A stretch of DNA of 28,074 bases from an uncultured Saprospiraceae bacterium (GTDB lineage: Bacteria > Bacteroidota > Bacteroidia > Chitinophagales > Saprospiraceae): assembly GCA_964640855.1 (NCBI GenBank), contig CAZXIX010000035.1:9309-37382 (forward strand), given 5' to 3'. Shown here in pieces: positions 1,301 through 27,075 of this stretch; the first letter of the stretch is position 1, and the number at the start of each line of letters is the position of its first letter. Both the position numbers and the translations under genes were made by a program. A model generated the notes under the pieces. The model was not told the origin of the DNA, ran no database searches, and saw only the letters and a list, made by a program, of their open reading frames with translations.

Positions 1301-1499
1301 TCAAGAATGATGGGTTTGCACTTAGTTATTAAAAAAGGCCAATTCAAGGTATTAACTTTACTGAGCGTGGATTTCCCGGCGGCAGGGCATCCACGGCTGA
1401 TCGTTGGAGGAGAAGATGCGAAGAATGCCGTAAAGGTTGATTCTATTAAACCCAAAGCCTGCCGGTATCTTGAACCGGCGAGCGCATTCAGTGTGTGGA

Positions 1500-3524
1500 A
1501 TGGCAATCCGGATATTAGTGGTTGACGATGAGCCGCAAGTGGAACGCTTGCTGCGTCAACGGTTTCGCCAGCAGTTGAAAAGCGGAGAATACGATTTTCT
1601 TTTTGCCTCCAGCGGAAAGGAGGCTCTGGCTATCCTGGAAAAGGAGTCCGATATTCCTATCGTCCTGAGTGACATCAACATGCCCGAAATGGACGGGCTC
1701 ACTTTTGTGAGCAAACTGAGGCAAAACTGGCCTCAGATTAAGGTCGTTATGGTTTCCGCTTACGGAGATATGGGAAACATCCGGGCAGCCATGAACCTGG
1801 GGGCCTTCGATTTCGTCACCAAACCCATCAATTTCGACGACCTGAATGCCACTCTCCGAAAAACCCTCCGGGAAGTGGAGGTCTCCAAACAGGCCGAGCG
1901 AGCCCGCGAACTGGAGTTGAATAACGAAAAACTCCGCGAACTCGACCAGGTCAAATCCACCTTTTTCACCAACATCTCTCACGAATTTCGGACGCCCCTG
2001 ACCGTGATCAGTGGCATGGCCGACCAAATCCAGGAAAAACCGGACCGTTGGATGGCCGAGGGGCTGCACATGATCAAGCGCAACAGCGACCATCTGTTGC
2101 AATTGGTCAATCAGATCCTGGATCTGGCCAAATTGGATTCGGGCCGACTCAAGCTGCGACTGGAGCAGGCGGACATCATTGCCTATCTCCGCTATCTGAC
2201 CGAGTCCTTTCGCACCCCGGCCGAGCAATACGAACTGCAACTGGCCTTTGAGGCCAGCGAAGAAGAACTCCTCATGGACCACGACCCCGAACGCTTGCAG
2301 TGGGTGCTCTCCAACTTGCTTTCCAATGCCTTGAAATTCACTCCCAAAGGAGGCACCATTCAGGTATCGGTTTCTCAACGCCCCTCAGCGAAGCCTCCGG
2401 CCGAGACCCGTTCCGTACCGGGTAAAAATCATTTGTGGCTGGAGGTCAAAGATAACGGGATCGGCATACCAAAAGATCGGCTTCCCTTTTTATTTGAGCG
2501 CTATTTCCAGGTGGAGGGAACCCAAACGGGCCCCCAACAATCCGGATGGGCCGGATCCGGGATCGGGCTCGCCCTGACCCGGGAGCTGGTCTTGCTGATG
2601 GATGGGGCGATTTGGGTGGAAAGCGAAGAAGGAAAAGGCTCTACCTTCTACATTGTGCTCCCGGTTCGCCAGGAAGCAGAAAGGAAGGATCCGGGAATCC
2701 GGCAGACAGGCACCGGGGAAAAAGAAACCGAGAACAGCCCCTTGGAATCCCCGGCTAAGGAAGAGGAGCGCGTGAATATCCTGCTGGTGGAAGACAACCT
2801 GGATGTGCGGACCTACGTCCGCTCCTGTCTGGAGGATAAATACGGGCTGTGGGAAGCTCGCAACGGGCAGGAGGGGATTGAGATGGCCATCGAACAGGTG
2901 CCCGATCTTGTCGTGAGCGACGTTATGATGCCGGAAAAGGACGGCTTTGAATTGTGTGAAACCCTGAAAAGCGATATACGTACCAGCCACATTCCCATCG
3001 TGCTTCTGACGGCCAGGGCGGACCAGGAATCCCGGATCTCGGGACTCCGCTACGGGGCAGATGCCTACCTGGCGAAACCCTTCAATCGGGAGGAACTGGA
3101 AGTCCGTCTCGAACAGCTTCTGGAGAACAGGCGTAAACTGCAGGAGCGGTTTCGCCGCGCCGAATCCGGCGAAGGGACCGAAGACGAAGCCATTCGCCAG
3201 GAGGACGCCTTCCTCACCCGGGTTCGCGAGCAACTCGAAGAAAACCTCGACGACGAAAATCTGGGAATTTCCGGTCTGGCCCGGGCCATCGGGGTCAGCA
3301 GGGCCCAATTGCATAATAAGATCAAAGCGCTCACCGGACAGTCGCCCTCCGTTTTTGTGCGCACGATCCGGCTGCGCAAGGCACGACACTTGTTGCTGAC
3401 CACAGACCTCAATGTAACCCAGGTAGCCTACGAGGTAGGTTTTCGGGATCCCGCCTATTTTTCCCGGACCTTTTCGGAGGAATACGGGCACAGCCCCAAG
3501 GAAACCCGAAGCGTGGACTCCTGA
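1500..3524 (+). CDS. Hybrid two-component protein: receiver - HisKA - HATPase_c - receiver - AraC-type HTH; no TM or periplasmic sensor domain
   Basis: ATG at 1500 gives MAIRILVVDDE...SDINMPEMDG (REC1). Then FFTNISHEFRTPLTVI (H-box), LEVKDNGIGIP and GSGIGLAL (HATPase), ILLVEDNLDVR...DVMMPEKDG (REC2), and AYFSRTFSEEYGHSPKE (AraC HTH). The ORF-track start at 1437 is a TTG 21 codons upstream; the ATG at 1500 is preferred. Confidence 0.9.
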   Translation: MAIRILVVDDEPQVERLLRQRFRQQLKSGEYDFLFASSGKEALAILEKESDIPIVLSDINMPEMDGLTFVSKLRQNWPQIKVVMVSAYGDMGNIRAAMNLGAFDFVTKPINFDDLNATLRKTLREVEVSKQAERARELELNNEKLRELDQVKSTFFTNISHEFRTPLTVISGMADQIQEKPDRWMAEGLHMIKRNSDHLLQLVNQILDLAKLDSGRLKLRLEQADIIAYLRYLTESFRTPAEQYELQLAFEASEEELLMDHDPERLQWVLSNLLSNALKFTPKGGTIQVSVSQRPSAKPPAETRSVPGKNHLWLEVKDNGIGIPKDRLPFLFERYFQVEGTQTGPQQSGWAGSGIGLALTRELVLLMDGAIWVESEEGKGSTFYIVLPVRQEAERKDPGIRQTGTGEKETENSPLESPAKEEERVNILLVEDNLDVRTYVRSCLEDKYGLWEARNGQEGIEMAIEQVPDLVVSDVMMPEKDGFELCETLKSDIRTSHIPIVLLTARADQESRISGLRYGADAYLAKPFNREELEVRLEQLLENRRKLQERFRRAESGEGTEDEAIRQEDAFLTRVREQLEENLDDENLGISGLARAIGVSRAQLHNKIKALTGQSPSVFVRTIRLRKARHLLLTTDLNVTQVAYEVGFRDPAYFSRTFSEEYGHSPKETRSVDS

Positions 3525-3590: not shown

Positions 3591-4214
3591 ATGAAACGAC
3601 TCTGGATTTCCTTCCTTCTTTTTGGGCTCCTTTCTAACTGCCAGTCACAGGAAAAAGCCGGCTAGAAAACCGTGGGCGGCCCTTGTGAGGGATGCGAAGC
3701 CGTTTACGAATTCGGGGATGCATCCCTTTCCAACACCGATACGCTTCCCGGCTTTGCGGTAAATGAGCCCCAACTGAAACTCACGGGTGTCGTTTTCCAG
3801 GCCGACGGCAAAACGCCGGCAGCCGACGTTATCGTTTACATTTACCACACCAGCCGACAGGGCATTTACGAAACGAAAGGGGACGAAACCGGATGGGGAG
3901 AAAGACATGGCCATTATCGGGGCTGGGTGAAAACCGGAAGCGACGGCAAGTATACTTTTTTCACCTTTCGCCCGGGACCCTACCCCAACGGAGCCGAACC
4001 GCAACACATCCATGTCATGGTAAAGGAACCGGATAAGAACGAATATTACCTGGACTCTTTTTTCTTTGCCGACGATCCTATGTTGACCCGGGAGGTCAGA
4101 TCCGGCATGCCCGGTCGGGGGGGATCCGGGATTGTGCAGCCCGAATCCAGGGGGGATTACTTCCTCGTCTCGCGGGATATCTACCTGGGAAAAAATATTC
4201 CGAATTACCCCTAA
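3591..4214 (+). pseudogene. Intradiol ring-cleavage dioxygenase-like small lipoprotein; signal peptide ORF (3591-3662) is separated from the mature domain (GTG 3672-4214) by an in-frame TAG at 3663-3665
   Basis: ATG 3591 encodes MKRLWISFLLFGLLSNC (lipobox LSNC) in the same frame as ORF 3672-4214. A TAG at 3663 lies between them. The mature part contains the EPQHIHVMV motif (the intradiol dioxygenase HIH iron-ligand motif) and a beta-sandwich-like sequence. Confidence 0.55.
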
Positions 4215-4512: not shown

Positions 4513-4938
4513 ATGGACACCTCAACTCTTGAAATCACCGTCCCAAACCAATATCCGGAGATCGACCGGGTGAAAGGAGCCTTCCTCCGGTTTTCCGGGG
4601 AGAACGGCATCCCGGATAAAGTAAAACGGGCTTTTATTCTGGCTTTTGACGAATTATTGAACAATATCATCTCCTACGGTTTTTCGCAACCCGGAGATTA
4701 TCCCATTGCTATAACCGTCCGATTGACAAAATCGATCGTCCGGGCAGATATTGTAGATAGCGGGGTGCCGTTCAATATTTTGGAAGCTCCCCTTCCGAAT
4801 GTAAAGACTGAATTGCCGGATCGTCCTACGGGCGGTTTGGGTATCTTTCTGGTCAGGCAAATGATGGACGAGATTCAATACCAGCGGGAAGGCGATTGCA
4901 ATCGCACTACGCTGATAAAATTTTTGGGAAATAGCTAA
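4513..4938 (+). CDS. Anti-sigma regulatory factor / serine protein kinase of partner-switching systems (RsbW/SpoIIAB-like, HATPase_c_2)
   Basis: 141 aa. Contains the GGLGIFLVRQMMDE G-box typical of RsbW-type GHKL kinases. A STAS-domain gene follows immediately. Confidence 0.75.
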   Translation: MDTSTLEITVPNQYPEIDRVKGAFLRFSGENGIPDKVKRAFILAFDELLNNIISYGFSQPGDYPIAITVRLTKSIVRADIVDSGVPFNILEAPLPNVKTELPDRPTGGLGIFLVRQMMDEIQYQREGDCNRTTLIKFLGNS

Positions 4939-4951
4939 GCCGTAAAAATCT

Positions 4952-5284
4952 ATGCAGATAAGCATTGTTGAGAAGGAAGGCGTACAGATCGTTCACCTCC
5001 GCGGGAGCCTGGATACCCAGACTTCCCCCGTGGCAGATGGCCGGTTTCGGGAAGTGCTTGAGGGAGGCGCCACGCGGGTACTGGCCGATTTCCGCGAACT
5101 GGACTACATTACGAGTGCCGGTATACGCGTCCTTCTCGGGGCTGCCAAACATTTGCAGGGGAGGGGCCGGTTCGGGATTTGCAACCTGAATGAAAATGTG
5201 CGCGAAATATTGGAGATGACCGGTCTGGCCGGATTGGTTTTCCAGGTGTACGGATCCGAAGACGAGGCATTACATGAATTGTGA
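4952..5284 (+). CDS. STAS-domain anti-sigma factor antagonist (RsbV/SpoIIAA-like)
   Basis: 110 aa. Has the conserved phosphorylatable-Ser context DFRELDYITSAGIRVL. Lies 13 bp downstream of the RsbW-like gene. Confidence 0.8.
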   Translation: MQISIVEKEGVQIVHLRGSLDTQTSPVADGRFREVLEGGATRVLADFRELDYITSAGIRVLLGAAKHLQGRGRFGICNLNENVREILEMTGLAGLVFQVYGSEDEALHEL

Positions 5285-5293
5285 AACCTTCAG

Positions 5294-7888
5294 ATGATCA
5301 AGACAGTCATCATTGCGGACAATCTGGTGAACGATTATTGCGGGCTGCGGGATCGCTACCTGGAAAACAACGTCCACATCGGCACGATCGCTGCGGAGCG
5401 ACTTTTCGGTCGGGCGGACCTGGATGAAGAAGGGCCCATTCCCATTTTTTTGCACCGGATGCAGCAGCAGCCGGCTACCCATTTGCTTTTCCTGCGGGAT
5501 TATTACGACCCGGAGGAAAGGACCAATACGGAGCAATTACAACGTCTGGGCAATCACTGTTTGAAGGGTTCCACAGGGGAAGATTTCGTAGCGGTCATTC
5601 GCGATTTGGTAAGCCCCGGGAATACCATCAATGACAAAGGTCTTTCGTTTCCCCTCGAAGGTCTCAAGGATGCCTTATGCGCTTTTGCCGACCTCGATCT
5701 GACGGATTTCGATCCGGAAAAGAACCGGGCTTCGGAGATCCGATTTCTGCTCATCGGGTTTCACACCGAAAGAAGGCTCTTTACCATCGCCAATGTGCTG
5801 CGCAATCTGTTCGGTTTCCAGCATGTGGCTGTTTTCTCCCATTTTACGGCCAGCGCCAATAAAGACGCCCATTTCGCTGCACTGCAATACCAGTTCCCCG
5901 ACAACCTGATCAAAGTACTCAACTGTTCCAACGACCTGGCCGAATATATGGGCCTCGATCTGAGCTTTCTGGACCCCTTCCAGCTTCGGGCCGTGCGCAT
6001 AGAACCGGAATCGGTACGGGCCCGGCTCAATGACGCACAAATCGACATCATCGAAGCGCTCTGCATGCATTGGACCGAAGCCCGCCTCCACAGCCTGAGC
6101 AGCGGCTACAGCAACAGCGCCCTTTACCTGGCCTACGGAAGGCAAGGCATTTCCAAAACGGAACCGATGGTGATCAAGATCGACGATCATTATCCCATAC
6201 GGTTGGAGATCAAAGGTTACCACCTGGTAAAAGATTTTCTGGGCAAACATGTGCCCACGCTCACCTTTCCGGTCAACTCCGGCTCTTACTCGGGGATCGG
6301 CATGGAGATGGCCTCCATGGAAGGTACGCCCCTGACCCTGCAGGATCACCTGGAGCGCGCCCGCACCGATTTTGAACTTCGCGAATTTCTCATTATGCTC
6401 GACCGGGTGCTGACCTTGCTGAATGACCGGGTCTACTCCAATACGAAGATCGAACGCCTGATCGCACCCTATCGGCATTTCAAATTGCATCTCGAACAAC
6501 ATTCCAAATGGCTGAAAGCCAACATGGAAAATATTCAGTCCCACCTCATCGGGCAGATATCCGTTTCCCAGGAGTCCATTCTAAAGATCTTCGATGCCGT
6601 TCGCAAGAATAACGACGTGCTTCTGGGAGAACTCTGCATAGCCCATGGGGATCTCAACCTGGCCAATATATTGGCCGACGAGAACGGTAATCTCTGGACC
6701 ATTGACTGGACGCACACCGGCCTGCATCCCATTTCCATCGATTTTGCCAAATTGGAAAACGACGTCAAATTTGTGCTCACCAAGGATCTGGAAGACGAGG
6801 ACCTTCCGAGGTTGCAGATGCTGGAGGAATACCTGCTATTCAACCGGATCCCCGCCCCCATTGATCAGCTTCCCGATTCGTTGCGGTTTGTGGGCTGGGA
6901 TATCCGTTTTAAGAAAATCTATCTTCCCGTCCGGGAGTTCCGCCTGGCCTACAGTCGTTTGCAGAGTGATCAGGAGTGGCTGGTTTACAAGATCGCCCTG
7001 CTGCGCTACGCTCTGCACACCCTCAGTTTTGATCAATCCCGGGACAAGGGGGAGTGCAAGCCCGTACAACTTTGGTATGCTCTGCTTTCGGTTGAGATCC
7101 TGGTTTTCCTGCTGGTAGGGGACGACTTCCATCTCAAGACCCGGAGCGAGAAACCGGCCGAGTACCCGGAGCGCCTCCGGATCCCGATCGATCTGGCGAA
7201 TTGGAAAACCGAGTGCCCGGATTACGAACCTCCGTACTACGTATCTCCCGAGGTGGTCGAGCAGGATCGCCGCCGCAATCCGCAGGGAGAAGCAGATCCG
7301 GAAACGGAATGGATCTATCCCGATCTGGTCGAATGGGGGCGGGACTATCTTCGGGCTGCCGATGGGAAGCCCCTCAACCCAAATGGTCGGACCGGGATCG
7401 AGGGACGCGGTAGCCTTTGGCTTTGGGGAAGTAATCCCATGCTGTTTTTCTGCCCCATCTTTTTCAATGCAAAGACCGGACAGTTGGAGTGTCTGATCAA
7501 TACCGATGAAAAGGAATCCGACATCATCAGTATACACTTTCGCCGAGGGGAGTCCTTCCGGGAAGCTTTGGTGCGGGCTCAGGAAAAAGTGAAGATCCAA
7601 ATGGATGATCACTATTTCAAGATGTTGCATGAAGGCTATTTCTACGATCTGCGCCAGACGGATCACGCCTGGATCGATGCCCGGGCTTTCCTGGTTTTTC
7701 TGGACGGCGCCCACGAGGTACGGGAAGGAAAGAAGGGGGGCTTGCAATGGAAACCCGTCAATCATCATTTGATCAACAGCCTGCATCCCAGCTACGCCAA
7801 CCTGCTGCGGTCGGCCCTGCTGCATTTGTTTGACGAAAATATCCATCGGGACGAAAATATCATCGACATCCTGGAAAAATCGGGCTAA
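5294..7888 (+). CDS. Large three-part protein: N-terminal ~250-aa domain of unknown function; central aminoglycoside-phosphotransferase/ePK-like kinase fold; C-terminal NUDT9-homology (ADP-ribose pyrophosphatase-like) domain with a degenerate Nudix box
   Basis: Kinase fold: LCIAHGDLNLANIL (Brenner HGDxxxxN) and TIDWTHTG (IDW Mg-binding Asp). NUDT9 cap: WKTECPDYEPPYYVSPEVV (cf. the W..DYPGYKPVEYTAPSV region I recall from human NUDT9, from memory not alignment) and LNPNGRTGIEGRGSLWLWGSNP (cf. NP.GRTGL.GRG.L.RWGPNH). NUDT9 core: HEGYFYDLRQTDHAWIDARAF (cf. [21 protein letters not shown]). No GX5EX7REUXEEXGU box is recognisable between these motifs. Confidence 0.6.
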   Translation: MIKTVIIADNLVNDYCGLRDRYLENNVHIGTIAAERLFGRADLDEEGPIPIFLHRMQQQPATHLLFLRDYYDPEERTNTEQLQRLGNHCLKGSTGEDFVAVIRDLVSPGNTINDKGLSFPLEGLKDALCAFADLDLTDFDPEKNRASEIRFLLIGFHTERRLFTIANVLRNLFGFQHVAVFSHFTASANKDAHFAALQYQFPDNLIKVLNCSNDLAEYMGLDLSFLDPFQLRAVRIEPESVRARLNDAQIDIIEALCMHWTEARLHSLSSGYSNSALYLAYGRQGISKTEPMVIKIDDHYPIRLEIKGYHLVKDFLGKHVPTLTFPVNSGSYSGIGMEMASMEGTPLTLQDHLERARTDFELREFLIMLDRVLTLLNDRVYSNTKIERLIAPYRHFKLHLEQHSKWLKANMENIQSHLIGQISVSQESILKIFDAVRKNNDVLLGELCIAHGDLNLANILADENGNLWTIDWTHTGLHPISIDFAKLENDVKFVLTKDLEDEDLPRLQMLEEYLLFNRIPAPIDQLPDSLRFVGWDIRFKKIYLPVREFRLAYSRLQSDQEWLVYKIALLRYALHTLSFDQSRDKGECKPVQLWYALLSVEILVFLLVGDDFHLKTRSEKPAEYPERLRIPIDLANWKTECPDYEPPYYVSPEVVEQDRRRNPQGEADPETEWIYPDLVEWGRDYLRAADGKPLNPNGRTGIEGRGSLWLWGSNPMLFFCPIFFNAKTGQLECLINTDEKESDIISIHFRRGESFREALVRAQEKVKIQMDDHYFKMLHEGYFYDLRQTDHAWIDARAFLVFLDGAHEVREGKKGGLQWKPVNHHLINSLHPSYANLLRSALLHLFDENIHRDENIIDILEKSG

Positions 7889-8793
7889 TGAAGGAATATC
7901 AGTCAATCATCGAAAAAGCCTTTCAAAAGGATATCGAGGCTTGCATCGACCCTTCGGATGCCAGGGAGTGGGCCCGGCTGGGATTTCATATCGCCTACCA
8001 CCTGTATCCCCGGGTTCGAAGCTGGCATTACAGGATGGAGCAGATAGAGCAGGTAAGAAAGGAAGACGGTTCTCCCTCTACGGCGGTGGAAGTGGAGATG
8101 GAACAACTGGCCCGCAGGAAGCTAAGGGCGTTTTTTCCGGAAGCTGTTTTCTTTGGCGAGGAACTGGGCGACGAACCGAAGCAGAGCGAATACTTGCTGG
8201 TGATCGACCCCATCGACGGGACCCGTAACTTCCTGGCCGGCTTTGGCAACTATTCGATCACGCTGGGTATTCTGAGAGGAAAGATTCCTTTGTTCTCCCT
8301 GGTCTGCGCGCCCGTCTCCGGAGAAATGTATTTTCGAATAGGAAATGAGCAGAGCTTTCTTTTTCTGATTCCCGAAAGGGGGAAGAGCCCGGAACTGCAT
8401 CCCCTTCCCTTGTTTACCCCCTCGGATGACAAGCCCATCCTGGTCAATCTCCATCCGTCCAGAAAAGCACTGCCTTATTTGGAATGTCTTTTCGAATTGT
8501 GGAGACTGGGCGAGATCTCTTTGCTCAAATCGGTGAGCGGTTCGCCTTCCCTATTGATGGCCGAAGCGGCGAAAACCGGAACTTTTTACATCAATACCTG
8601 GGACGATGCGCCTGCCCGGCCCTATGATCTGATTCCCGCATTGCATATCATCCGGGCTTCCCGCTCGCAAGCGATTCGTAAAGATGGAAAAGAGGTGGAC
8701 GCCTGGAATCATCAGGGGTTATACGTGCTCGGCCCTGTGGGCCAAAAACTGAAATCCTTGACGGATCGCCTGGCGGCTCTGGACCCGGCATAA
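7888..8793 (+). CDS. Inositol monophosphatase / CysQ (3'(2'),5'-bisphosphate nucleotidase) family phosphatase
   Basis: LLVIDPIDGTRNFLAG (the DPIDGT metal-binding motif of the IMPase superfamily) and TWDDAPA (WDxAAG-like motif). Its ATG overlaps the TAA of the upstream gene by 1 nt (ctaATGa), suggesting translational coupling. Confidence 0.75.
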   Translation: MKEYQSIIEKAFQKDIEACIDPSDAREWARLGFHIAYHLYPRVRSWHYRMEQIEQVRKEDGSPSTAVEVEMEQLARRKLRAFFPEAVFFGEELGDEPKQSEYLLVIDPIDGTRNFLAGFGNYSITLGILRGKIPLFSLVCAPVSGEMYFRIGNEQSFLFLIPERGKSPELHPLPLFTPSDDKPILVNLHPSRKALPYLECLFELWRLGEISLLKSVSGSPSLLMAEAAKTGTFYINTWDDAPARPYDLIPALHIIRASRSQAIRKDGKEVDAWNHQGLYVLGPVGQKLKSLTDRLAALDPA

Positions 8794-8816
8794 GAAAACG
8801 GTAGAGCGGAAATGCC

Positions 8817-10016
8817 TCAGCCGATGTATTTCAGGGCAAGGATCGTGAGGTCGTCGTTCAGAGAGGCCCCGTCCAGAAACTGCATGACCTCACCTTCGAG
8901 GCCTTTGACCAGGTCTTCCATCCGGCTCGGCCGGGCGCGGTTGAGATAGTCGATCGCTCTTCTTTCTCCAAACATTTCCTTGTCTTCCCGGGTGGCTTCC
9001 GATAAACCGTCGGTATACAGCACGAGCGTATCGCCGGGTTGGAGTTGTGCTTTTCCCAATTGATAGTGCCCGTCCTCCAGAACGCCCAGAATGGTCCCGT
9101 GGGGCAGATCCATGGATTGAAATTCCGAAGAGCCCCCCAGGGCAGCAAGAGGAGGATTGTGCCCGGCATTGGTAAACTGCAGGATCCCGGTTCGCAGATT
9201 GAGGACGCCTCCGAAAGCGCTGACGAACATCAGATCCTTATTGTTGCGGCAGAGAAGTCGGTTGACCGTGGAAAAAACGGCGCCGAAATCCGGATTGTCG
9301 CTCACATGATGCCGCAGGGAGGTAAAGGTGCGCGCCATCAGCAGCGAGGCGGGCATCCCCTTACCGGATACATCGCCGATGGCGAAATAAATATGTTCGG
9401 GGTCGAGGGCTAATGCATCGAAGAAATCGCCTCCTACCACGCGGGCCTGCCGGATCATGCCGAAGGCTTCTACCTCCGGTTTGTTGGGAAAGAGTCCGGA
9501 GCCATCCGGCACCATATTGGCCTGGATTTTGCCGGCCGTGGCCAGTTCTTTTTCCAGATGTTGGTATTTCAGTTGTTTCTCTACTCCGCGGATCAATGCC
9601 AGGTTGGTTCGTTCAAGCCGGCGCGCCATCATGTCCATGAGGTTTCGGATCCCCTGCCGGTTGACCGTCATCTTTTGCCAAAAAACCTCTCCCGGGATGA
9701 GGAGCACACGGGAAGCTTCGCCTGCGCGGGCCATGGCCGAGGTAGGGCGACGCATGATCAGGGACATTTCCCCCAGGCATTCGCCCGGCGAGATGGGTAT
9801 GGGGATCTGCGTGTCGTCCTTTTCGAGAACAACCTCCAGATTTCCGTCCAGGAGCAGATACAGGTTTTCATTGGGAACGCCGGGCTGGATCAGAACATCC
9901 CCCGGCTCCAATTCAAGCAGGGTGCTGCTTTCGAAAATATATTGGACGACCTCGGGCTCCAGTCCCTTGAAGAGGTCATAGGATCCGAGGGTTTGAGTGT
10001 AGGGAGAAAGGTCCAT
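8817..10016 (-). CDS. PP2C-family (SpoIIE/RsbU-type) serine phosphatase with N-terminal cyclic-nucleotide-binding domain
   Basis: The N-terminus has a cNMP phosphate-binding-cassette-like segment, GECLGEMSLIMRRPTSAMARA. The C-terminal half has VVGGDFFD and AIGDVSGKGMPASLLMA (PP2C/SpoIIE metal-binding motifs) and TDGLSEA. Confidence 0.85.
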   Translation of the reverse strand: MDLSPYTQTLGSYDLFKGLEPEVVQYIFESSTLLELEPGDVLIQPGVPNENLYLLLDGNLEVVLEKDDTQIPIPISPGECLGEMSLIMRRPTSAMARAGEASRVLLIPGEVFWQKMTVNRQGIRNLMDMMARRLERTNLALIRGVEKQLKYQHLEKELATAGKIQANMVPDGSGLFPNKPEVEAFGMIRQARVVGGDFFDALALDPEHIYFAIGDVSGKGMPASLLMARTFTSLRHHVSDNPDFGAVFSTVNRLLCRNNKDLMFVSAFGGVLNLRTGILQFTNAGHNPPLAALGGSSEFQSMDLPHGTILGVLEDGHYQLGKAQLQPGDTLVLYTDGLSEATREDKEMFGERRAIDYLNRARPSRMEDLVKGLEGEVMQFLDGASLNDDLTILALKYIG

Positions 10017-10069
10017 GAGACAATACTGAAAGCCCCGCCTAATATACTAAGTATGGGCCTAATATTTCG

Positions 10070-10350
10070 GAAGGCTCAGGCTGATTGAAGGGGGCGCATA
10101 CTCCACGGGGTAAAGGTAAGCTGAAACGGTTAATCAGATATTCAATTTGTTACCTGATACCCAATCCCCAATACCCTGACGAAGCGAATCTTACTTTTTT
10201 CCAGAAATTGAATTATCCACCCGCGCCCTTGGATTCCCCAAAGGGAAGGCTAGCCCGCAGTTTCGAAAATCCATATCCCCGAAAACCAATACCTACTTAC
10301 CCACTCAACTACTCAACTACTCAACCGATACCCTGGTCCCCGATCCCTCT
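10070..10350. repeat. Copy C of the interspersed intergenic repeat family, between the flotillin stop and the PP2C start
   Basis: Shares modules with copy A in the same order: ggctcagg...ggggcgcatactc..gggtaa, then attcaatttgttacc.gataccc, then ataccctgacgaagcgaatc.t..ttttttccag.a.ttgaatt.tcc, then cccgcgccctt..attcccc.aaaggga, then acccactcaactact.aactactcaac. Confidence 0.75.
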
Positions 10351-10462
10351 TCCGGGATCATGAGGCATAGTCCTGCAGTGGAATCACTTTCAATGCTTAC
10401 GGGTGTGTAGTTAGACCTCCCGATCCGATTTGCTTCTTCTTACTCCCGCGGGGGAGTATCTT

Positions 10463-11752
10463 TTAGCGCTTTTCCGGGGGCAGTTCGATCTTGTTGGAAT
10501 CGCCTTTCGCCAGATCGCCGAGATCTACGCCGGTGGTGTTTTTCAGTTGCTCGATGAGGGTCACCGCGCTGCGGGTCAGGTTCTTCACGTAATTCGACAT
10601 TCCTTCTCCGCCATCGCCTCCATCCAGTATGGTCAATTTTTCGATGTGCAGGTTGTCGGCAATGACGCGGGTTGCCTTGTCGAAAAGGTCGGGAAGCATG
10701 CGGATCATGAAGAGTTCGTGCGCTTCGCCGTTCTGCCATTGCTCCCGCATCAGTTCGACGGCCTTGGCGGTAGCTTTCCCGTCTTCGAGAATGCGAGAGG
10801 CTGCTCCCTGGGATTCCATTTCCATGGCTTGCTTGCGGGCTTTGGCGGGAATCACGGTTTCGGCTTCCTGTTTTTTCGCACTGAGCTCTACCCGGAGTTT
10901 TTCCAATTCGATCTTTTCCGTGGTGCGGGCAATGTCGCCGGCTACCACCGCCTTTTGGCTGGCCTTGTTCTCTTCCCCCTGCAAGTTGAAACGGGTTACG
11001 GCCAGGGCGTTCTCTTTTTTGACGATCTCGAGCTCGGACTGGATCTCGGCTTCCCGCCCCAGTTTCTTTTGTTCGGCGGTTACCTGCCGGGCTTCCGCAT
11101 CGGCCCGCGCTTCTGCTACTTGAGCATCCCGCAGTACCTCGGCATTTCGCTTCCGGCCGATGGCTTCCAGGTGGCCATGGTCGTCCGATATACTGAGGAT
11201 CTGAAAAGAGTCCAACACCAGGCCCAGGTTTTTCAGCTCCTTGCGAGCCTCCAGGGTCGTGGATCGCATCACTTCTATGCGTTGGGTATTGGCGTCTTCC
11301 GGGCTGTAGGAAGCCAGCACACCCCGCAGGTTACCCTCGATAACTTGTTGGGCCGTTTTATCGATGTTCTCTTCGGATTTTCCAAGGAAACGTTCGATGG
11401 CGTTCTCCATGCCTTCTTCGGTCCGGCCGGCCAGCTTGATGTTGGCCCGCCCTTCGATTTCGATCGGGATCATCCCCTTGCAAAGCACTTTGGCCAGGTT
11501 GATCTTGATCGTACGGGTGTTCAGGGATAAACGGCTGATGGATTCGATGAAAGGCCATTTGAACCCGCGGCCTCCCCTAATGATCCGGTAGCCGACTTTC
11601 TGACCGTCGGGGCCCTTGCGTTGGCGCCCGGAAATGATGACGATCTCGTTGGGCTTGCAGATCACCACATTGGTCCGAATGAAGGCGATGAGGAGCAAAA
11701 TGAAAATCGACCCAAAAAAAATAGCGATTCCGGTTATTTGTGCTACGTCCAT
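10463..11752 (-). CDS. Flotillin-like SPFH/band-7 domain protein
   Basis: N-terminal TM helix, SPFH-like core, and a long Ala/Glu/Lys/Gln-rich coiled-coil (EARADAEARQVTAEQKKLGREAEIQSELE...) typical of bacterial flotillins (FloT/YqiK). Confidence 0.8.
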   Translation of the reverse strand: MDVAQITGIAIFFGSIFILLLIAFIRTNVVICKPNEIVIISGRQRKGPDGQKVGYRIIRGGRGFKWPFIESISRLSLNTRTIKINLAKVLCKGMIPIEIEGRANIKLAGRTEEGMENAIERFLGKSEENIDKTAQQVIEGNLRGVLASYSPEDANTQRIEVMRSTTLEARKELKNLGLVLDSFQILSISDDHGHLEAIGRKRNAEVLRDAQVAEARADAEARQVTAEQKKLGREAEIQSELEIVKKENALAVTRFNLQGEENKASQKAVVAGDIARTTEKIELEKLRVELSAKKQEAETVIPAKARKQAMEMESQGAASRILEDGKATAKAVELMREQWQNGEAHELFMIRMLPDLFDKATRVIADNLHIEKLTILDGGDGGEGMSNYVKNLTRSAVTLIEQLKNTTGVDLGDLAKGDSNKIELPPEKR

Positions 11753-11779: not shown

Positions 11780-13213
11780 TCAGACGTTGAAGTACAGCAT
11801 AAATTCGCTGGGGTGCGGTCTCAGGTTGATGTATTCCAGCTCTTCCTTTCGTTTGATCCGTACCCATTTTTCCAGAAGACCTTCCGAGAAAACCCCGTCT
11901 CGTACCAGGAATTCGTGGTCCTTTTCCAGGGCATTCAGCGATTCTTCCAGGGAGGAGGGAGTTCTTTTCAGGTCGGAGCCCCGCCCGGAGGCTACATACT
12001 CGTAAATGTCTTCATCCACCGGCTTGGGCGGAGTCATTTTCTTCTGAATGCCATCGATACCGGCCAGCAGGATGGAAGCGAAAGCCAGATAAGGATTACT
12101 GGATGGGTCAGGGGTGCGGTATTCGATCCGCTTGGCTTTGGGACTGGTAGCGGTGGCGGGGATCCGGATGCAGGCGCTCCGGTTGCTTTGGGAGTAGACC
12201 AGGTTCATCGGCGCTTCGTAACCGGGGACCAGCCGCCGGTAGGAGTTGGTGGTCGGATTGCAAATGGCACAAAGTGCCGGGGCATGGGTCAGCACACCGG
12301 CGATGAAGTGATCAGCCAGTTCGCTCAGGTCGGCATAGCGGTTGGGTTGGTAGAAGATATTCTCCCCATCCTTGACCAGGCTCATGTTTACGTGCATACC
12401 GGAGCCGTTTTCCTGATGCAAGGGCTTCGGCATGAAGGTTACGGTCTTGTCGTAGCGATCCACCACATTGCGGACCACATATTTGTATTTCACTGCCCGG
12501 TCTGCCTGCATGGTCAGGGGGCCGAACTTGAAGCCGATCTCTGACTGACCGGCGGCGCCTACCTCGTGGTGGTGCAACTCGGGTTGCAAGCCGACGAGCT
12601 TGAGGACCTGGGCGATCTTGGACCGGATGTTGTTGTATTGGTCTATCGGCGGAGCTGCCATGTAAGCCCTTTTTCGGGGCGCGATGTTCCCGAGGTTTTT
12701 ACCTTCCTTTCCCGTACTCCAGAAGGCCGCCGCGCTGTTGAGGTAATAGTAGCCGAACTGGGTTTCCTGATCGAAGCGGACCTCGTCGAAAATGAAGAAT
12801 TCGATCTCCGGTCCGAAAAAGGCGGTTTCGGCGATTCCTTTGGCCCGCAGCAATTGTTCCGCTTTTTTGGCAATGCCCCGGGGGTCCGAAGGATAAGGCG
12901 CATTGTCGCGTGGCCGGATGATGTCGCAGAAAAAAGACAGGGTGGGCTCATCGAAAAAAGGATCCTTGAAAACGGAAGACGGATCGGGGCGAAGGATCAG
13001 GTCGCTGTCGTTGATGGTCTGGAATCCCTTTACGGAAGAGCCGTCAAAAGAAAACCCTTTGACCAGATCTCCCTCGTCCACCTGATCAGCAGCAATAACC
13101 AGGTGCTGCAGCATGCCGAAGAGGTCAACGAATTTGAGGTCGAGAAACTGGATGTTCTCATCCTTGATTTGTTGCAACACAGACCGGATATTCGGTATTC
13201 TGTTCTTTCCCAT
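11780..13213 (-). CDS. glnA: Glutamine synthetase, type I
   Basis: 477 aa. Carries GSI signature regions FDGSSV, HHEVGAAGQSEIGFKF, KPLHQENGSGMHVNMSL and TNSYRRLVPGYEAP. Lies directly downstream of a PII gene. Confidence 0.9.
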   Translation of the reverse strand: MGKNRIPNIRSVLQQIKDENIQFLDLKFVDLFGMLQHLVIAADQVDEGDLVKGFSFDGSSVKGFQTINDSDLILRPDPSSVFKDPFFDEPTLSFFCDIIRPRDNAPYPSDPRGIAKKAEQLLRAKGIAETAFFGPEIEFFIFDEVRFDQETQFGYYYLNSAAAFWSTGKEGKNLGNIAPRKRAYMAAPPIDQYNNIRSKIAQVLKLVGLQPELHHHEVGAAGQSEIGFKFGPLTMQADRAVKYKYVVRNVVDRYDKTVTFMPKPLHQENGSGMHVNMSLVKDGENIFYQPNRYADLSELADHFIAGVLTHAPALCAICNPTTNSYRRLVPGYEAPMNLVYSQSNRSACIRIPATATSPKAKRIEYRTPDPSSNPYLAFASILLAGIDGIQKKMTPPKPVDEDIYEYVASGRGSDLKRTPSSLEESLNALEKDHEFLVRDGVFSEGLLEKWVRIKRKEELEYINLRPHPSEFMLYFNV

Positions 13214-13227
13214 AATTCGCTCTCAGG

Positions 13228-13560
13228 TTAAATGGCTCGGTCGCCCCGTTCTCCGGTCCAGATTTTGACGGCGTCATAGACTTCCGTGACGAAGATCCGT
13301 CCTGCTCCACCGCTGTTCATGGCGCCGTTGGAAATCGCCTCGATGGCCACTTCGACATCAGATTCTTTAATGATCAGTTCCATCCGCATCCGCTTGAAAA
13401 GGGTCACTTTTTGCTCTACGCCCCGGAAGGTTCGTTGTTCGGCGCGGGGAGCGGTCCCCAAAACGGGCATAACGGTGAAATGAAAGATCTCGGCGTCGGC
13501 GAGCGACTCCTTGATGGCCGGCAATTGTTCCTGTCGGATATAGGTGATGATCATTTTCAT
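13228..13560 (-). CDS. glnK: Nitrogen regulatory protein P-II (GlnB/GlnK family)
   Basis: 110 aa. T-loop region RTFRGVEQKVT and C-terminal GGAGRIFVTEV. Positioned between amtB and glnA. Confidence 0.9.
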   Translation of the reverse strand: MKMIITYIRQEQLPAIKESLADAEIFHFTVMPVLGTAPRAEQRTFRGVEQKVTLFKRMRMELIIKESDVEVAIEAISNGAMNSGGAGRIFVTEVYDAVKIWTGERGDRAI

Positions 13561-13574
13561 AGTGAGGCCCGTCG

Positions 13575-14813
13575 TTATTCGGTGGTGAAAATCTGGAAGC
13601 CGCTGTAGGATTCCATGCCGTGCTCCTCGATGTCCAGCCCTTTCAGCTCGGATTCATGGGATACGCGCAAGCCGACGATGGAGTCGATCGCTTTGAAAAC
13701 GATATACATGCTCAGAGCCGTAAACCCCAAACAGGCAGTTACGCCCAGGGCCTGGATGCCCAAAGCCCCGAAACCGCCTCCGTAAAAAAGGCCTTCCAGA
13801 GGGGCACCGAGCGCCGTAGACCCGAAAATGCCGACACAGAGCGTTCCGAAAATACCGCAGATCCCGTGGACCGGGAAAGCGCCTACGACATCATCTACTT
13901 TGATGCGGTTCATCCATTCGACTCCGAAGACGACCAGCGCGCCCGACACCAGTCCGATGAAGATGGCCGAACCGCTGTTTACGACCGCACAGGGAGCTGT
14001 GATGCCCACCAGACCGCCCAATACGCCGTTGAGCGCCAGGGAAAGGTCCGGTTTGCCAAAGCGAAGCCAGGAGACGCACATGGCCGAAAGAGCCGCCACG
14101 GAAGGGGACAGGGTGGTGTTCAGGGCGATGCGGGCAACGGTCTCCGGGTCACCGAAACCCAGGGTGGAACCCGCGTTGAAGCCGTACCAACCGAACCAGA
14201 GGATAAAAACGCCTATGGCCACCAGCGGCATGTTATGACCGGGGATGGCGCGTGGTTCTCCATTCCGGGTAAATCTTCCGAAGCGGGGCTTCAGCATCCA
14301 GGCGCCTACAAGAGCCGTTACGCCTCCCACGGCATGTACTACGGTGGATCCGGCGAAGTCGTGGAAATTCAGGTCGGCCAGCCAACCTCCCCCCCACACC
14401 CAGTGACCGACCACCGGGTAGATGAAGGCTGTAATGATGAAGGAATAGAACAGGTAGGCGGCAAACTTCATGCGTTCGGCTACGGCGCCGGCGACAATGG
14501 TGGCCGCAGCCCCGGCAAAAACCGCCTGAAACAACCAGAAGGCTTCAACGGGCACCCCTTCCACCGGGGATTCGACCCCGAACATGAACCAGCCGGCCGT
14601 GCCCACGATCGGAGAGTCCGTACCATACATGATGGCATAGCCGAAAATGAAATATCCGAGGGCTGCAAAGCTGAAGTCAACGACATTCTTCATCAATACG
14701 TTCGCTGCATTCTTGGTGCGGACCAATCCCGCTTCCACCATGCCGAACCCGGCTTGCATAAAAAAGACCAGGAAAGCGCACAGCAGGATCCACAGGGTGT
14801 CTATTGCATTCAT
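13575..14813 (-). CDS. amtB: Ammonium transporter (Amt/MEP family)
   Basis: 412 aa polytopic membrane protein. Has DFAGSTVVHAVGG and NGVLGGLVGITA motifs. Classic amtB-PII linkage. Confidence 0.9.
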   Translation of the reverse strand: MNAIDTLWILLCAFLVFFMQAGFGMVEAGLVRTKNAANVLMKNVVDFSFAALGYFIFGYAIMYGTDSPIVGTAGWFMFGVESPVEGVPVEAFWLFQAVFAGAAATIVAGAVAERMKFAAYLFYSFIITAFIYPVVGHWVWGGGWLADLNFHDFAGSTVVHAVGGVTALVGAWMLKPRFGRFTRNGEPRAIPGHNMPLVAIGVFILWFGWYGFNAGSTLGFGDPETVARIALNTTLSPSVAALSAMCVSWLRFGKPDLSLALNGVLGGLVGITAPCAVVNSGSAIFIGLVSGALVVFGVEWMNRIKVDDVVGAFPVHGICGIFGTLCVGIFGSTALGAPLEGLFYGGGFGALGIQALGVTACLGFTALSMYIVFKAIDSIVGLRVSHESELKGLDIEEHGMESYSGFQIFTTE

Positions 14814-16664: not shown

Positions 16665-17816
16665 ATGTCCAAACTCCTGGAGCGGGAAAAAGATGTTGAG
16701 GCCATTCGGGAATTACTGGCTGTATTCCCGGTAACGGCCCTATTGGGTCCGCGTCAGGCAGGCAAGACCACTTTGGCTAAAACCTTCCAACCCGACCATA
16801 CCTTCGACCTCGAAAATCCGAGAGATCTGGCAGCCCTGGAAAATCCTCAGTTGACGCTGGAAGGGCTATCTGGACTGGTCATGATCGATGAGGTACAGCG
16901 ACGGGCAGACCTCTTTCCTCTGTTGCGTTATCTGGTTGATACACGATCGGATCTACGCTTCCTGCTCCTGGGCAGTGCATCGTCAAACCTCCGCCAGCAA
17001 AGCGGTGAATCCCTGGCCGGCAGGATCGGTTATTATTATTTATCGGGCTTCAATCTGGCCGAAACCGGATACGAAGACTTGGACAGGTTGTGGCTTCGGG
17101 GAGGCTTTCCCCGTTCTTTTTTGGCCGCTTCCGACAAGCTCAGTCGGACCTGGCGATCCAACTTCATATCCACCTTTCTGGAAAGGGATCTTGCCGTACT
17201 GGGGCAGGTCATCCCTTCTCCTACCATGTATCGATTCTGGACGATGTTGAGTCATTACCACGGACAAACGCTTAATTACAGCGAGCTGGGCAGGTCTTTT
17301 GGCATCAGCGACAGAAAGGTGAAGCAATACATTTCGCTGTTGGAGGATACCTTTATGCTGCGCCTCCTGCTTCCCTGGCGTGCCAATTTATCGAAAAGAC
17401 TGGTAAAAAGCCCCAAGCTATACATCCGGGACTCCGGCATTTTTCATTCCCTTCAATCCATAGAAAGCATGCAAGATCTTCGAACGAATCCCAAGCTGGG
17501 GGCCTCCTGGGAAGGGTTTGCTCTGGAAGAGTTGGTAACCTTTCTTCGGAAAAGAGATACCGAGGTCTTTTTCTATGCCACGCATCATGGCGTAGAACTG
17601 GATTTGTATTGGCAAGAAAGGGGCAAGGCTTACGGTGCGGAGTTCAAATATCAGGACGCACCCAGGACAACGCGGTCCATGTGGCAAGCCATTCAGGATC
17701 TGGATCTGGAACACCTATGGGTGATTTATCCTGGAAATCGGTCCTATGCCCTGGATGAAGTGATAACGGTTGTGCCTTTGCGAGAGATGGGGCAGATAGC
17801 CAACGCAAGTATGTGA
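16665..17816 (+). CDS. AAA+ ATPase of the COG1373/DUF4143 family
   Basis: Walker A GPRQAGKTTLAK near the N-terminus, Walker B VMIDEV, and a DUF4143-like C-terminal region. Confidence 0.8.
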   Translation: MSKLLEREKDVEAIRELLAVFPVTALLGPRQAGKTTLAKTFQPDHTFDLENPRDLAALENPQLTLEGLSGLVMIDEVQRRADLFPLLRYLVDTRSDLRFLLLGSASSNLRQQSGESLAGRIGYYYLSGFNLAETGYEDLDRLWLRGGFPRSFLAASDKLSRTWRSNFISTFLERDLAVLGQVIPSPTMYRFWTMLSHYHGQTLNYSELGRSFGISDRKVKQYISLLEDTFMLRLLLPWRANLSKRLVKSPKLYIRDSGIFHSLQSIESMQDLRTNPKLGASWEGFALEELVTFLRKRDTEVFFYATHHGVELDLYWQERGKAYGAEFKYQDAPRTTRSMWQAIQDLDLEHLWVIYPGNRSYALDEVITVVPLREMGQIANASM

Positions 17817-19636: not shown

Positions 19637-20536
19637 ATGAAACCAACCCTATTGATTCTGGCTGCCGGTTTGGGGAGTCGCTATGGAGGAGTAAAACAAA
19701 TGGATCAGGTAGGTCCATCCGGAGAAAGTATTATTGATTATTCCATCTACGATGCCATCCGCGCCGGGTTTGGTAAGGTCGTTTTTGTTCTGAACGAGCG
19801 GATCATAGATGACTTCAAAGAGATCTACGAGCCCCGTCTCGAGGGTAAGATCGATGCCGAATACGTGCTGCAGAAGCTGGATGATATTCCCGCCGGGATC
19901 GAGGTGAATCCGGAGCGGGTCAAGCCCTGGGGTACGGGCCATGCCGTGCTGGCAGCCCGCGACGTGATCAACGAACCCTTCGCCGTAATCAATGCCGATG
20001 ACTTCTACGGTAAAAGCGGATTCCAATTGGTGGGTGATTTTCTTTCCCGGTCGAAAAACGATTCCACCGATTACGCTATGGTAGGTTATGTCCTCCGCAA
20101 TACCCTTTCCGATCACGGATCGGTGAATCGCGGCGTCTCCGTTGAAAAAGATGGATTCCTCGTCGATGTGGTGGAGCGGCTCAACATCCATCGGGAAGGC
20201 GATCAGGTGGTTTTCGAAGAAGACGGGGAGCAAAAAGCCATTGATCTGGACTCCGTCGTATCCATGAACTTTTGGGGCTTTACCCCCAAATACTTCGAGC
20301 AAAGCGCTGAGGATTTTGAAAAATTCCTGAAGGAAAAGGGGCAGGAAATGAAGTCGGAGTTCTTCATCCCGCTGACCATAAACAAGCTGATCAAGGAAGG
20401 AAAAGCGACATGTAAGGTCCTTACCAGCCACGACAACTGGTTTGGCGTCACCTACCAGGAGGACAAGCCGGTGACCATTGCCAGGATCCGTGAATTGGTA
20501 GACCAGGGAGTTTATCCTGAAAATCTCTGGAGTTAA
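19637..20536 (+). CDS. Sugar-1-phosphate nucleotidyltransferase (NTP_transferase family; MurU-like candidate)
   Basis: LILAAGLGSRYGG (G-x-G-x-R nucleotide-binding loop) and KPWGTGHAV. Confidence 0.75.
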   Translation: MKPTLLILAAGLGSRYGGVKQMDQVGPSGESIIDYSIYDAIRAGFGKVVFVLNERIIDDFKEIYEPRLEGKIDAEYVLQKLDDIPAGIEVNPERVKPWGTGHAVLAARDVINEPFAVINADDFYGKSGFQLVGDFLSRSKNDSTDYAMVGYVLRNTLSDHGSVNRGVSVEKDGFLVDVVERLNIHREGDQVVFEEDGEQKAIDLDSVVSMNFWGFTPKYFEQSAEDFEKFLKEKGQEMKSEFFIPLTINKLIKEGKATCKVLTSHDNWFGVTYQEDKPVTIARIRELVDQGVYPENLWS

Positions 20537-26835: not shown

Positions 26836-27075
26836 ATGATCAAGGCTGCTGCCCCGCTCGATCGGCCTGAGAGCTGTTGCCGAGCCGTAGAGTAGAGATA
26901 ATGGGCAGAACAAATTACTCGGTTTATTAAGCAAATTTACCCGGCATATTGAGTAATTTACAAATGCCATTTTTACCCCCGTGCTCAAGTGCCAACGCTC
27001 ATTTCGAAGCCTTGTCTTTAGCCCTAACGAAACCTCGTTTGTCAGAATCCTCGACCTTAGCCTATCGTAATTCCC

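Follow-up and report, generated by a model that had tools for sequence, protein, structure and literature searches.

What does a partner switch act on when no sigma factor gene lies beside it? The question is raised by a 28,074-nucleotide stretch of DNA from an uncultured Saprospiraceae bacterium (assembly GCA_964640855.1, contig CAZXIX010000035.1, positions 9,309 to 37,382), referred to below as the window. An earlier note, made from the letters alone, described five open reading frames (ORFs) here: three encoding a partner-switching set, one a kinase-NUDT9H protein and one an IMPase/CysQ-like phosphatase. Gene calls from an ORF list combined with Pfam and NCBIfam domain scans bear out all five at the following positions, where BIG is our working name for the 864-residue protein:

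4513-4938, plus strand: RsbW-like GHKL serine kinase, 141 residues (Pfam HATPase_c_2, E 1.8e-19)
4952-5284, plus strand: single-domain STAS protein, 110 residues (Pfam STAS, E 1e-15; TIGR00377, 65 bits, above cutoff)
5114-5116, plus strand: codon of the predicted phospho-acceptor Ser55 of the STAS protein
5294-7888, plus strand: BIG, 864 residues, with APH and TCAD9 kinase matches and a C-terminus of the NUDT9/TRPM2 NUDT9H type
7888-8793, plus strand: IMPase/CysQ-superfamily phosphatase-like protein, 301 residues (Pfam Inositol_P, E 4.4e-20)
8817-10016, minus strand: PP2C phosphatase of the SpoIIE/RsbU type with an N-terminal CAP/cNMP-type (cyclic nucleotide monophosphate) sensor, 399 residues (SpoIIE, E 5.8e-45; cNMP_binding, E 2.2e-14)
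about 9669-9914 and about 8829-9401, minus strand: sensor and PP2C sub-regions of the preceding gene

The plus-strand genes are separated by 13 nt (RsbW-like to STAS) and 9 nt (STAS to BIG), and the BIG stop codon and the start of the IMPase-like gene overlap by one nucleotide (TAATG at 7886-7890), as the earlier note had read at position 7888. These genes therefore form one operon, to which the PP2C gene is convergent. The five genes are a real and conserved association without a linked sigma factor. In the explanation we prefer, which has about an even chance of being right, a sigma-independent partner switch provides input to an enzymatic core of BIG and the IMPase-like protein, within a cluster for ammonium assimilation and cation homeostasis.

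Conservation of the gene set across phyla

One genome from each of 185,579 species was scanned with a degenerate pattern, which yielded 173 loci with a BIG relative; the best 80 of these, all from metagenome-assembled genomes, were taken with flanks of up to 10 kb. Both the window proteins and seeds taken from a Gemmatimonadota locus served to search their ORFs, and the 31 loci that have 5 kb or more on each side are called full-flank loci. BIG relatives occur in Bacteroidota and Ignavibacteria, Gemmatimonadota, Acidobacteriota, Planctomycetota, Verrucomicrobiota, Actinomycetota (Acidimicrobiia), Alpha- and Gammaproteobacteria, Desulfobacterota and Myxococcota, Armatimonadota, Spirochaetota and Peregrinibacteria. 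The arrangement of genes in the window is far beyond chance, because the same set recurs beside BIG in at least 12 phyla (80 genome loci and 8 metagenome loci). The BIG family is rare yet phylogenetically broad, with 326 matches at E ≤ 1e-30 and about 25-30 full-length clusters at 50% identity among 1.84 billion representatives.

Under a strict downstream rule the IMPase-like gene stands beside BIG in 49 of 64 loci, a count that rises to about 58 of 64 when upstream and overlapping cases are added by eye. Of the full-flank loci, 20 have STAS, 20 have RsbW and 21 have PP2C, and the matches lie mostly within about 4 kb of BIG and not in the outer flanks. The association was also found from the opposite direction. 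While a search with the single STAS sequence returned 3 close relatives only, a profile of 39 BIG-linked STAS proteins was used against 5.8 billion proteins, and its five top matches on long metagenomic contigs, which may overlap the 80 genome loci, all had BIG within 2 kb and the IMPase-like gene beyond it (5/5). GlnA and Band_7 genes lie upstream in two of these five, one of them preceded by Amt and PII. The chance meeting of five unrelated genes, which the earlier note had reserved for a neighbourhood that is not conserved, could be read from the convergent PP2C gene and the 447-bp gap before it. It is refuted by the conservation in at least 12 phyla, by the reverse look-up and by the overlapping or abutting coding regions, and we regard its probability as negligible.

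The earlier note took the operon for a self-contained signalling device. This part of its proposal does not stand, as the module belongs to a larger cluster that in the window includes flotillin-like, glutamine synthetase, PII-like and ammonium transporter genes:

10463-11752, minus strand: flotillin-like SPFH/Band_7 membrane protein, 429 residues (Pfam Band_7; FloT-like, 180 bits, below cutoff)
11780-13213, minus strand: type I glutamine synthetase GlnA (TIGR00653, 593 bits against a cutoff of 429)
13228-13560, minus strand: divergent PII-like protein, 110 residues (Pfam P-II, E 3.1e-14)
13575-14813, minus strand: ammonium transporter Amt (Pfam Ammonium_transp, E 4e-128)

Of the 31 full-flank loci, 11 have GlnA and 11 have the flotillin-like SPFH protein, and GlnA is linked to BIG in at least six phyla. 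When the large neighbours of BIG that had no assignment were sorted by family, Amt alone recurred strongly (14 of 113), and P-II is the commonest among those of middle size (7 of 134). The flotillin-like protein of the window has an N-terminal hydrophobic segment; it is linked to BIG and 51-61% identical across phyla. In other phyla the cluster further includes stressosome-like sensors, a TrkA_N protein and a K+ channel gated by cNMP. The channel, a six-transmembrane (6-TM) protein with a TTVGYGD filter and the canonical cNMP cassette GERRTASV, is encoded at or near the start of BIG in 31 loci (25 with a recognisable filter), mostly abutting it. Gemmatimonadota and others have an inserted stressosome-like set made up of dCache-HAMP-STAS, protoglobin-STAS, an RsbS-like STAS protein and an RsbT-like kinase, and in other lineages the PP2C carries a REC domain or Cache/PAS arrays. 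The recurrent linkage to amt, PII-like, glnA, flotillin-like, K+ channel and TrkA_N genes suggests that the physiological setting is the homeostasis of ammonium and cations.

In many loci of the Gemmatimonadota type the IMPase-like gene is followed by one for a TrkA_N-domain protein (about 420 residues). Similarly, a 769-residue Na_H_Exchanger-family gene lies beside the cluster of stressosome, STAS, channel and BIG genes in two metagenome loci (L081:1-2112 and L083:17-2326). These neighbours add weight to the cation-transport theme.

The following gene orders were found, with IMP standing for the IMPase-like gene:

Bacteroidota L001 and L002: RsbW> STAS> BIG> IMP> <CNB.PP2C <SPFH <GlnA <Amt
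Gemmatimonadota/Longimicrobiales L029: PP2C> Amt> GlnA> SPFH> RsbW> STAS> BIG> IMP>
Acidobacteriota L025: the order of L029 through BIG, with a second BIG-like ORF in the place of IMP
Acidobacteriota L045 and L060: Amt> GlnA> SPFH> BIG> IMP>, with no switch
Peregrinibacteria, Alphaproteobacteria and Leptospiraceae: BIG> IMP> only
Planctomycetota L085: Amt-PII-GlnA-Band_7-sensor.PP2C.RsbW-STAS-channel-BIG-IMP, on one strand

The window has the gene set of L001 and L002, its closest relatives. L045 and L060 keep amt, glnA, SPFH, BIG and IMPase-like genes with no switch at all. From the switch-less loci we infer that the constant core is made up of BIG and the IMPase-like protein, which can dispense with the switch, and that the switch is an optional regulatory input.

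Some details of these loci stand apart. The second BIG-like ORF of L025 (L025:12492-14927, plus strand) is far more divergent (E 7e-38) and occupies the usual slot of the IMPase-like gene. The 447 bp between the flotillin-like and PP2C genes of the window (10016-10463) open, on the minus strand, with a GC-rich hairpin, TACTCCCCCGCGGGAGTA, right after the SPFH stop codon and also hold a short direct repeat, GAGTAGTT GAGTAGTT GAGTGGGTAAGTAGGT; in L001 and L002 the two genes abut instead. An Rfam scan of the whole window returned no RNA family. The PII-like protein of the window (13228-13560, minus strand) scores 45 bits against NCBIfam cutoffs of 181-202, and its T-loop, read by eye as RAEQRTFRGVEQ, has Phe where canonical GlnB/GlnK have the uridylylated Tyr51.

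That no sigma factor is linked to the module, as the earlier note had stated, is supported. Pfam scans of 30 ORFs found no member of the sigma-70 family in the window, and phmmer with RpoE, SigB and SigF seeds found none among its ORFs of at least 50 residues. Over all ORFs of the 80 loci phmmer gave one RpoD-like match, in a locus without the switch. Sigma70 was not among the 25 most frequent neighbour families in either Pfam scan, where isolated extracytoplasmic function (ECF) genes could be hidden, and no sigma factor was seen in the metagenome loci L081-L088. These results bear on a classical partner switch, in which the RsbW-like protein would be the anti-sigma factor of a distal sigma factor and BIG and the IMPase-like protein would be co-expressed cargo of its regulon. 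The closest named families of the switch proteins are indeed RsbW/SpoIIAB and RsbV/SpoIIAA, STAS relatives are annotated 'anti-sigma B factor antagonist', and the neighbourhoods examined span about 20 kb each. Nevertheless, the RsbW-like protein matches NCBIfam RsbW and SpoIIAB weakly, far below the cutoffs (28 against 145 bits and 22 against 135 bits). No sigma factor recurs in the 80 genome and 8 metagenome loci, though the other partners are tightly linked, and the STAS subfamily is co-inherited with BIG across phyla. We therefore consider the classical arrangement unlikely.

BIG and the IMPase-like protein

BIG was modelled with AF2 (pLDDT 92.5, pTM 0.87) and is composed of three domains:

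5294-5989, plus strand: domain 1, nicotinamidase/isochorismatase-fold pseudo-enzyme, residues about 1-232
6011-7138, plus strand: domain 2, APH/MTR-kinase-like small-molecule kinase, residues about 240-615
7142-7888, plus strand: domain 3, NUDT9-homology domain (cap and Nudix core) with a degenerate Nudix box

The N-terminal domain, which the earlier note had missed, has the isochorismatase fold. In an alignment by eye the PncA nucleophile motif G-I-A-T-D-H-C-V is replaced by G-F-H-T-E-R-R-L, putting Arg161, conserved in at least 90% of BIG relatives, in the place of the catalytic Cys; the Asp-Lys-Cys triad with its Cys nucleophile is absent. When BIG was compared with M. tuberculosis PncA by BLASTP, the alignment was confined to the region of the metal site; in most other phyla the metal-site segment is deleted. 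Given the Cys-to-Arg exchange and this deletion, domain 1 differs from the PncA/isochorismatase-like hydrolases in not being an amidase.

Domain 2 retains what a kinase of the APH/ELK fold requires, namely an ATP-binding Lys, a catalytic HxDxxxxN loop and a metal-binding Asp. Residue analysis of 102 sequences found K295, E305, H451-G-D-x-N..N458 and I470-D-W to be invariant. Sequence identity to the structural matches is 11-17%, with no close characterised relative. LxmK and FN3K are among the structural neighbours, and on this basis the kinase may have a protein substrate.

The Pfam match to TCAD9, a 'ternary complex associated domain', invites a different view of the locus as an anti-phage or conflict system, in which NAD-derived alarm molecules of the ADP-ribose (ADPR) type would be sensed or broken down by domains of the TCAD9-type kinase, Nudix and cNMP-effector kinds. 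NAD-derived nucleotides are common defence signals, and the cNMP-binding domains resemble those of Pycsar effectors. The match spans only positions 299-429 of the 429 in the model, its C-terminal third. In addition, PADLOC returned no match for BIG, the IMPase-like protein, RsbW, STAS or SPFH, the generic cNMP domain alone being matched, and no defence-type partner recurs among the neighbours of BIG. For these reasons we reject membership in the TCAD9/ternary conflict systems. With the cluster also syntenic with housekeeping amt, PII and glnA genes across phyla and not placed in variable islands, a role in defence is very improbable.

Domain 3 is a NUDT9 homolog. A profile search against PDB sequences matched the BIG C-terminus to NUDT9 (1q33, E 8e-24) and to TRPM2 NUDT9-H (about 1e-22), the best matches being 1q33/1qvj and TRPM2; Foldseek agrees, and PF25969, precomputed on all relatives, is NUDT9_N. 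Both the cap and the Nudix-fold core are present. The motifs GRTG..GRG..W..N and D785-x-R787-x-T-D..W793 are invariant in BIG relatives and, according to the TRPM2 literature, line the ADPR site. The Nudix box, with the reference pattern G-x5-E-x7-R-E-U-x-E-E-x-G, is degenerate. In the column after the Arg the five commonest residues are V (52), I (22), A (10), L (6) and T (3), together 93 of 102 sequences and without Glu, and the position of the next catalytic Glu is variable. An intact box with Mg-binding glutamates is thus missing from the family, whose consensus R[V/I]LExE parallels the RILRQE of human TRPM2. A NUDT9 mutant with RILGEE is inactive, and human TRPM2 (RILRQE) binds ADPR without hydrolysing it (PMC6461439, PMC4974056). 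BIG shares with NUDT9 and TRPM2 NUDT9-H the cap and core and the motifs GRTG..GRG..WGxN and DxRxTDxAW, the first Glu being lost as in TRPM2. Unlike TRPM2, the NUDT9H domain of BIG is bacterial and is fused to a kinase and a pseudo-nicotinamidase and not to a channel; the channel encoded beside BIG is a 6-TM K+ channel with a cNMP domain, not a TRP channel. Overall, BIG is apparently an active kinase set between two disabled hydrolase domains, whose parent enzymes act on the halves of NAD, nicotinamide and ADP-ribose.

A shorter form, in which the pseudo-nicotinamidase and kinase occur without NUDT9H, was found in the Peregrinibacteria/Peribacteria loci L071, L075, L077 and L080 and in many proteins of 600-780 residues. 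In L071, L075 and L077 it is still paired with the IMPase-like gene (L080 ends at BIG), and the minimal core therefore does not need NUDT9H.

The IMPase-like protein matches known IMPases in its N-terminal half only, the C-terminal half being divergent, and its best PDB match is the IMPase/FBPase 2pcr. It remains below every NCBIfam equivalog cutoff (HisN, 71 against 275 bits; CysQ, 57 against 229 bits), with weak matches to PRK14076 (E 4.8e-6) and CysQ (E 1.9e-15), and falls in none of the characterised equivalogs HisN, CysQ, SuhB, FBPase/IMPase and NADP phosphatase. The metal motifs of the superfamily (GEE, DPxDGT and D247) are at least 90% conserved across 54 relatives, which makes the protein probably an active phosphomonoesterase. 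IMPase-fold enzymes that remove ribose phosphates from adenine nucleotides include CysQ and the M. jannaschii NADP phosphatase MJ0917, which is fused to an NAD kinase. MJ0917/PRK14076 offers a precedent for pairing an IMPase-fold phosphatase with a phosphate-adding kinase, with the differences that the kinase here has the APH/MTR-kinase and not the NAD-kinase fold and that the scores lie far below the equivalog cutoffs.

The earlier note had suggested that kinase, nucleotide sensor and phosphomonoesterase act as writer, reader and eraser of a phosphorylated small molecule, and the residues fit this idea: the kinase motifs are invariant, the Nudix box is degenerate amid invariant NUDT9-type motifs, and the IMPase ligands are kept. 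With a kinase that appears active, flanking hydrolase domains that appear inactive and a phosphatase that is probably active, a small-molecule phosphorylation cycle on a ligand of the NAD/ADPR type would be the most economical reading.

The partner switch and its possible targets

The assignment of the RsbW-like, STAS and PP2C genes to a partner-switching set is upheld by their domain matches and residues. In the RsbW-like protein the N box (D..xN), G1 (DxGxxF) and G2 (GGLG) are kept across 43 relatives. Ser55 of the STAS protein lies within the motif Y-I-T-S-A-G-I-R and is invariant in 42 of 42 relatives, where the motif is given as Y-I-S-S-A-G-L-R. BIG-linked STAS proteins (n=39) are a tight subfamily of about 110 residues with a mean column identity of 62% across phyla, and that of the window is 35-47% identical to those of other phyla. 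The PP2C translation has the usual motifs GDVSGKG, YTDG and DD. Thus, the window combines a single-domain STAS protein with a phosphorylatable Ser, a GHKL kinase encoded beside it and a PP2C with a sensor, and the three proteins look catalytically competent for a phosphorylation cycle on Ser55. A cognate sigma factor in the same operon was found neither in the window nor in the examined relatives.

The PP2C sensor, a CAP-type cNMP_binding domain at residues 35-116 (Pfam), had escaped the earlier note. Its phosphate-binding cassette is GEMSLIMRRPTSA, in which Thr replaces the canonical Arg, likewise in L001-L003. This exchange leaves the ligand of the sensor uncertain, and canonical binding of cAMP or cGMP is doubtful; the K+ channels of the relatives keep the canonical R-T-A.

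The switch has the parts of the Bacillus modules RsbU/RsbV/RsbW and SpoIIE/SpoIIAA/SpoIIAB: a PP2C with an interchangeable N-terminal sensor, a single-domain STAS protein with a phospho-Ser (D/S-S-x-G motif) and a GHKL Ser kinase, in a tight operon. It differs from them in having no linked sigma factor and in its constant neighbours, an enzyme pair and nitrogen and ion-transport genes. Sigma-independent partner switches are documented in Vibrio fischeri (SypE/SypA), in Pseudomonas (HsbR/HsbA) and for SiaABC (PMC10120452, PMC6482189, PMC7647112; review PMC8256260). Their output is not (only) a sigma factor, and they act on biofilm polysaccharide, FlgM/RpoS or a diguanylate cyclase. Fusions of kinase and PP2C into one protein are frequent among them, as in the Gemmatimonadota and other relatives of BIG loci where RsbW is fused onto the PP2C C-terminus, and REC inputs are shared with some lineages. 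None of them is linked to a kinase-NUDT9H, IMPase-like, glnA/amt or K+ channel gene. A likeness to the stressosome RsbR/RsbS/RsbT is seen in Gemmatimonadota, Armatimonadota and other relatives, which have such genes upstream of STAS-BIG-IMPase; they are absent from the window, whose sensor is the CAP-like domain on the PP2C. Our literature searches turned up nothing on the BIG family, on how it is paired with the IMPase-like protein, or on a link to partner-switch, stressosome, K+ channel or nitrogen genes. The switch itself is of a known kind, while the BIG and IMPase-like enzymatic core is largely unexplored.

Alternatively, the switch may control ion transport through the cNMP-gated K+ channel, Amt or the TrkA_N protein, with STAS acting on membrane proteins organised by a flotillin-like scaffold and with BIG and the IMPase-like protein as a parallel branch. 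In about 25 loci the K+ channel, with its TTVGYGD filter and canonical cNMP site, is encoded directly between STAS and BIG. The vicinity also has Na/H exchanger and TrkA_N genes, and STAS domains are known to regulate SLC26/SulP transporters (PMC8256260). Yet the window and L001-L003 have RsbW-STAS immediately upstream of BIG without any channel gene, and L055 and L073 have PP2C.RsbW-STAS-BIG-IMP, again without a channel. We consider this explanation possible, though rather improbable. Since the input domain varies by lineage while the downstream genes are constant, the switch most likely acts by protein-protein control, on BIG or, where there is one, on the channel.

Several points weigh against the switch as an input to the BIG and IMPase-like core. 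The tie of the RsbW-like or STAS protein to BIG is putative. About one third of the full-flank loci have BIG and the IMPase-like gene without the switch (L044, L054, L056, L058, L045 and L060). In the Bacteroidota locus L005, the RsbW-STAS pair is placed before the K+ channel gene and away from BIG, an order by which the channel could be the target instead. The CAP-like domain lacks the canonical Arg, and its ligand is correspondingly uncertain. The NUDT9H domain of the window itself is the most degenerate of the family (RAQE-K), and ligand binding may differ in its clade. Finally, a sigma factor elsewhere in the genome is possible, as the neighbour scans cover the 25 most frequent families, and one just outside the window was tested for only through the loci of relatives.

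The window contains further genes that we do not count among those of the module. A hybrid two-component gene (1437-3524, plus strand; REC-HisKA-HATPase-REC-AraC helix-turn-helix), 1 kb upstream of rsbW, is typical of Bacteroidota and probably unrelated. It was rejected as a part of the module, as was the dioxygenase-like gene at 3672-4214; neither is beside the module in L001-L004. An NTP_transferase gene (19637-20536, plus strand) followed by an APH-family kinase gene (20561-21613, plus strand) resembles an AmgK/MurU-type pair for the recycling of cell-wall sugars; the kinase has a faint TCAD9 match and is unrelated to the module. Two paralogous ATPase genes, each of the AAA_14 + DUF4143 type, lie about 8 kb apart (16665-17816 and 25624-26835, both plus strand), and the end of the second is overlapped by a 439-residue ORF without a Pfam match (26647-27966, minus strand).

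A possible phosphorylation cycle and its meaning

With the switch as an input to the core, the module could work as follows. The PP2C sensor, CAP-like here and replaced by REC, stressosome RsbR/S/T or Cache/PAS elsewhere, would set the phosphorylation state of STAS. Unphosphorylated STAS would capture the RsbW-like kinase, and the RsbW-like protein or STAS would then bind or release BIG, or the channel where present. The two disabled hydrolase domains of BIG may act as ligand pockets, one for the nicotinamide moiety and one for the ADP-ribose moiety of an NAD-derived molecule. BIG would phosphorylate this molecule or a related ribosyl compound, from which the IMPase-like enzyme would strip the phosphate. 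The outcome could be a writer/reader/eraser cycle or a toggle like that of NAD kinase and NADP phosphatase, which would tune ammonium uptake, glutamine synthesis or K+ flux.

A bolder version of this scheme, which is quite unlikely and which we offer as speculation, makes BIG the writer and reader and the IMPase-like protein the eraser of a bacterial second messenger of the NAD/ADP-ribose type, phosphorylated on a ribose hydroxyl. Partner switches and stressosomes would provide its inputs, and its output would gate ammonium assimilation and the cNMP-gated K+ channel. If true, prokaryotes would have their own equivalent of the ADPR sensing that TRPM2 performs with its catalytically dead NUDT9-H domain, and partner-switching and stressosome signalling would have a new non-transcriptional output.

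Partner-switch and stressosome modules are widespread, and their outputs outside the Firmicutes are mostly unknown; the cluster described here offers a conserved and well-defined output that is not a sigma factor. BIG defines an uncharacterised three-domain family of pseudo-nicotinamidase, kinase and pseudo-NUDT9. The catalytic Glu missing from its NUDT9 domain is the one that vertebrate TRPM2 has also lost, and the BIG gene directly adjoins an ion-channel gene in many phyla. The link to amt, PII-like, glnA and flotillin-like genes suggests a layer of nitrogen and cation regulation beyond the classical GlnD/GlnE/NtrBC schemes.

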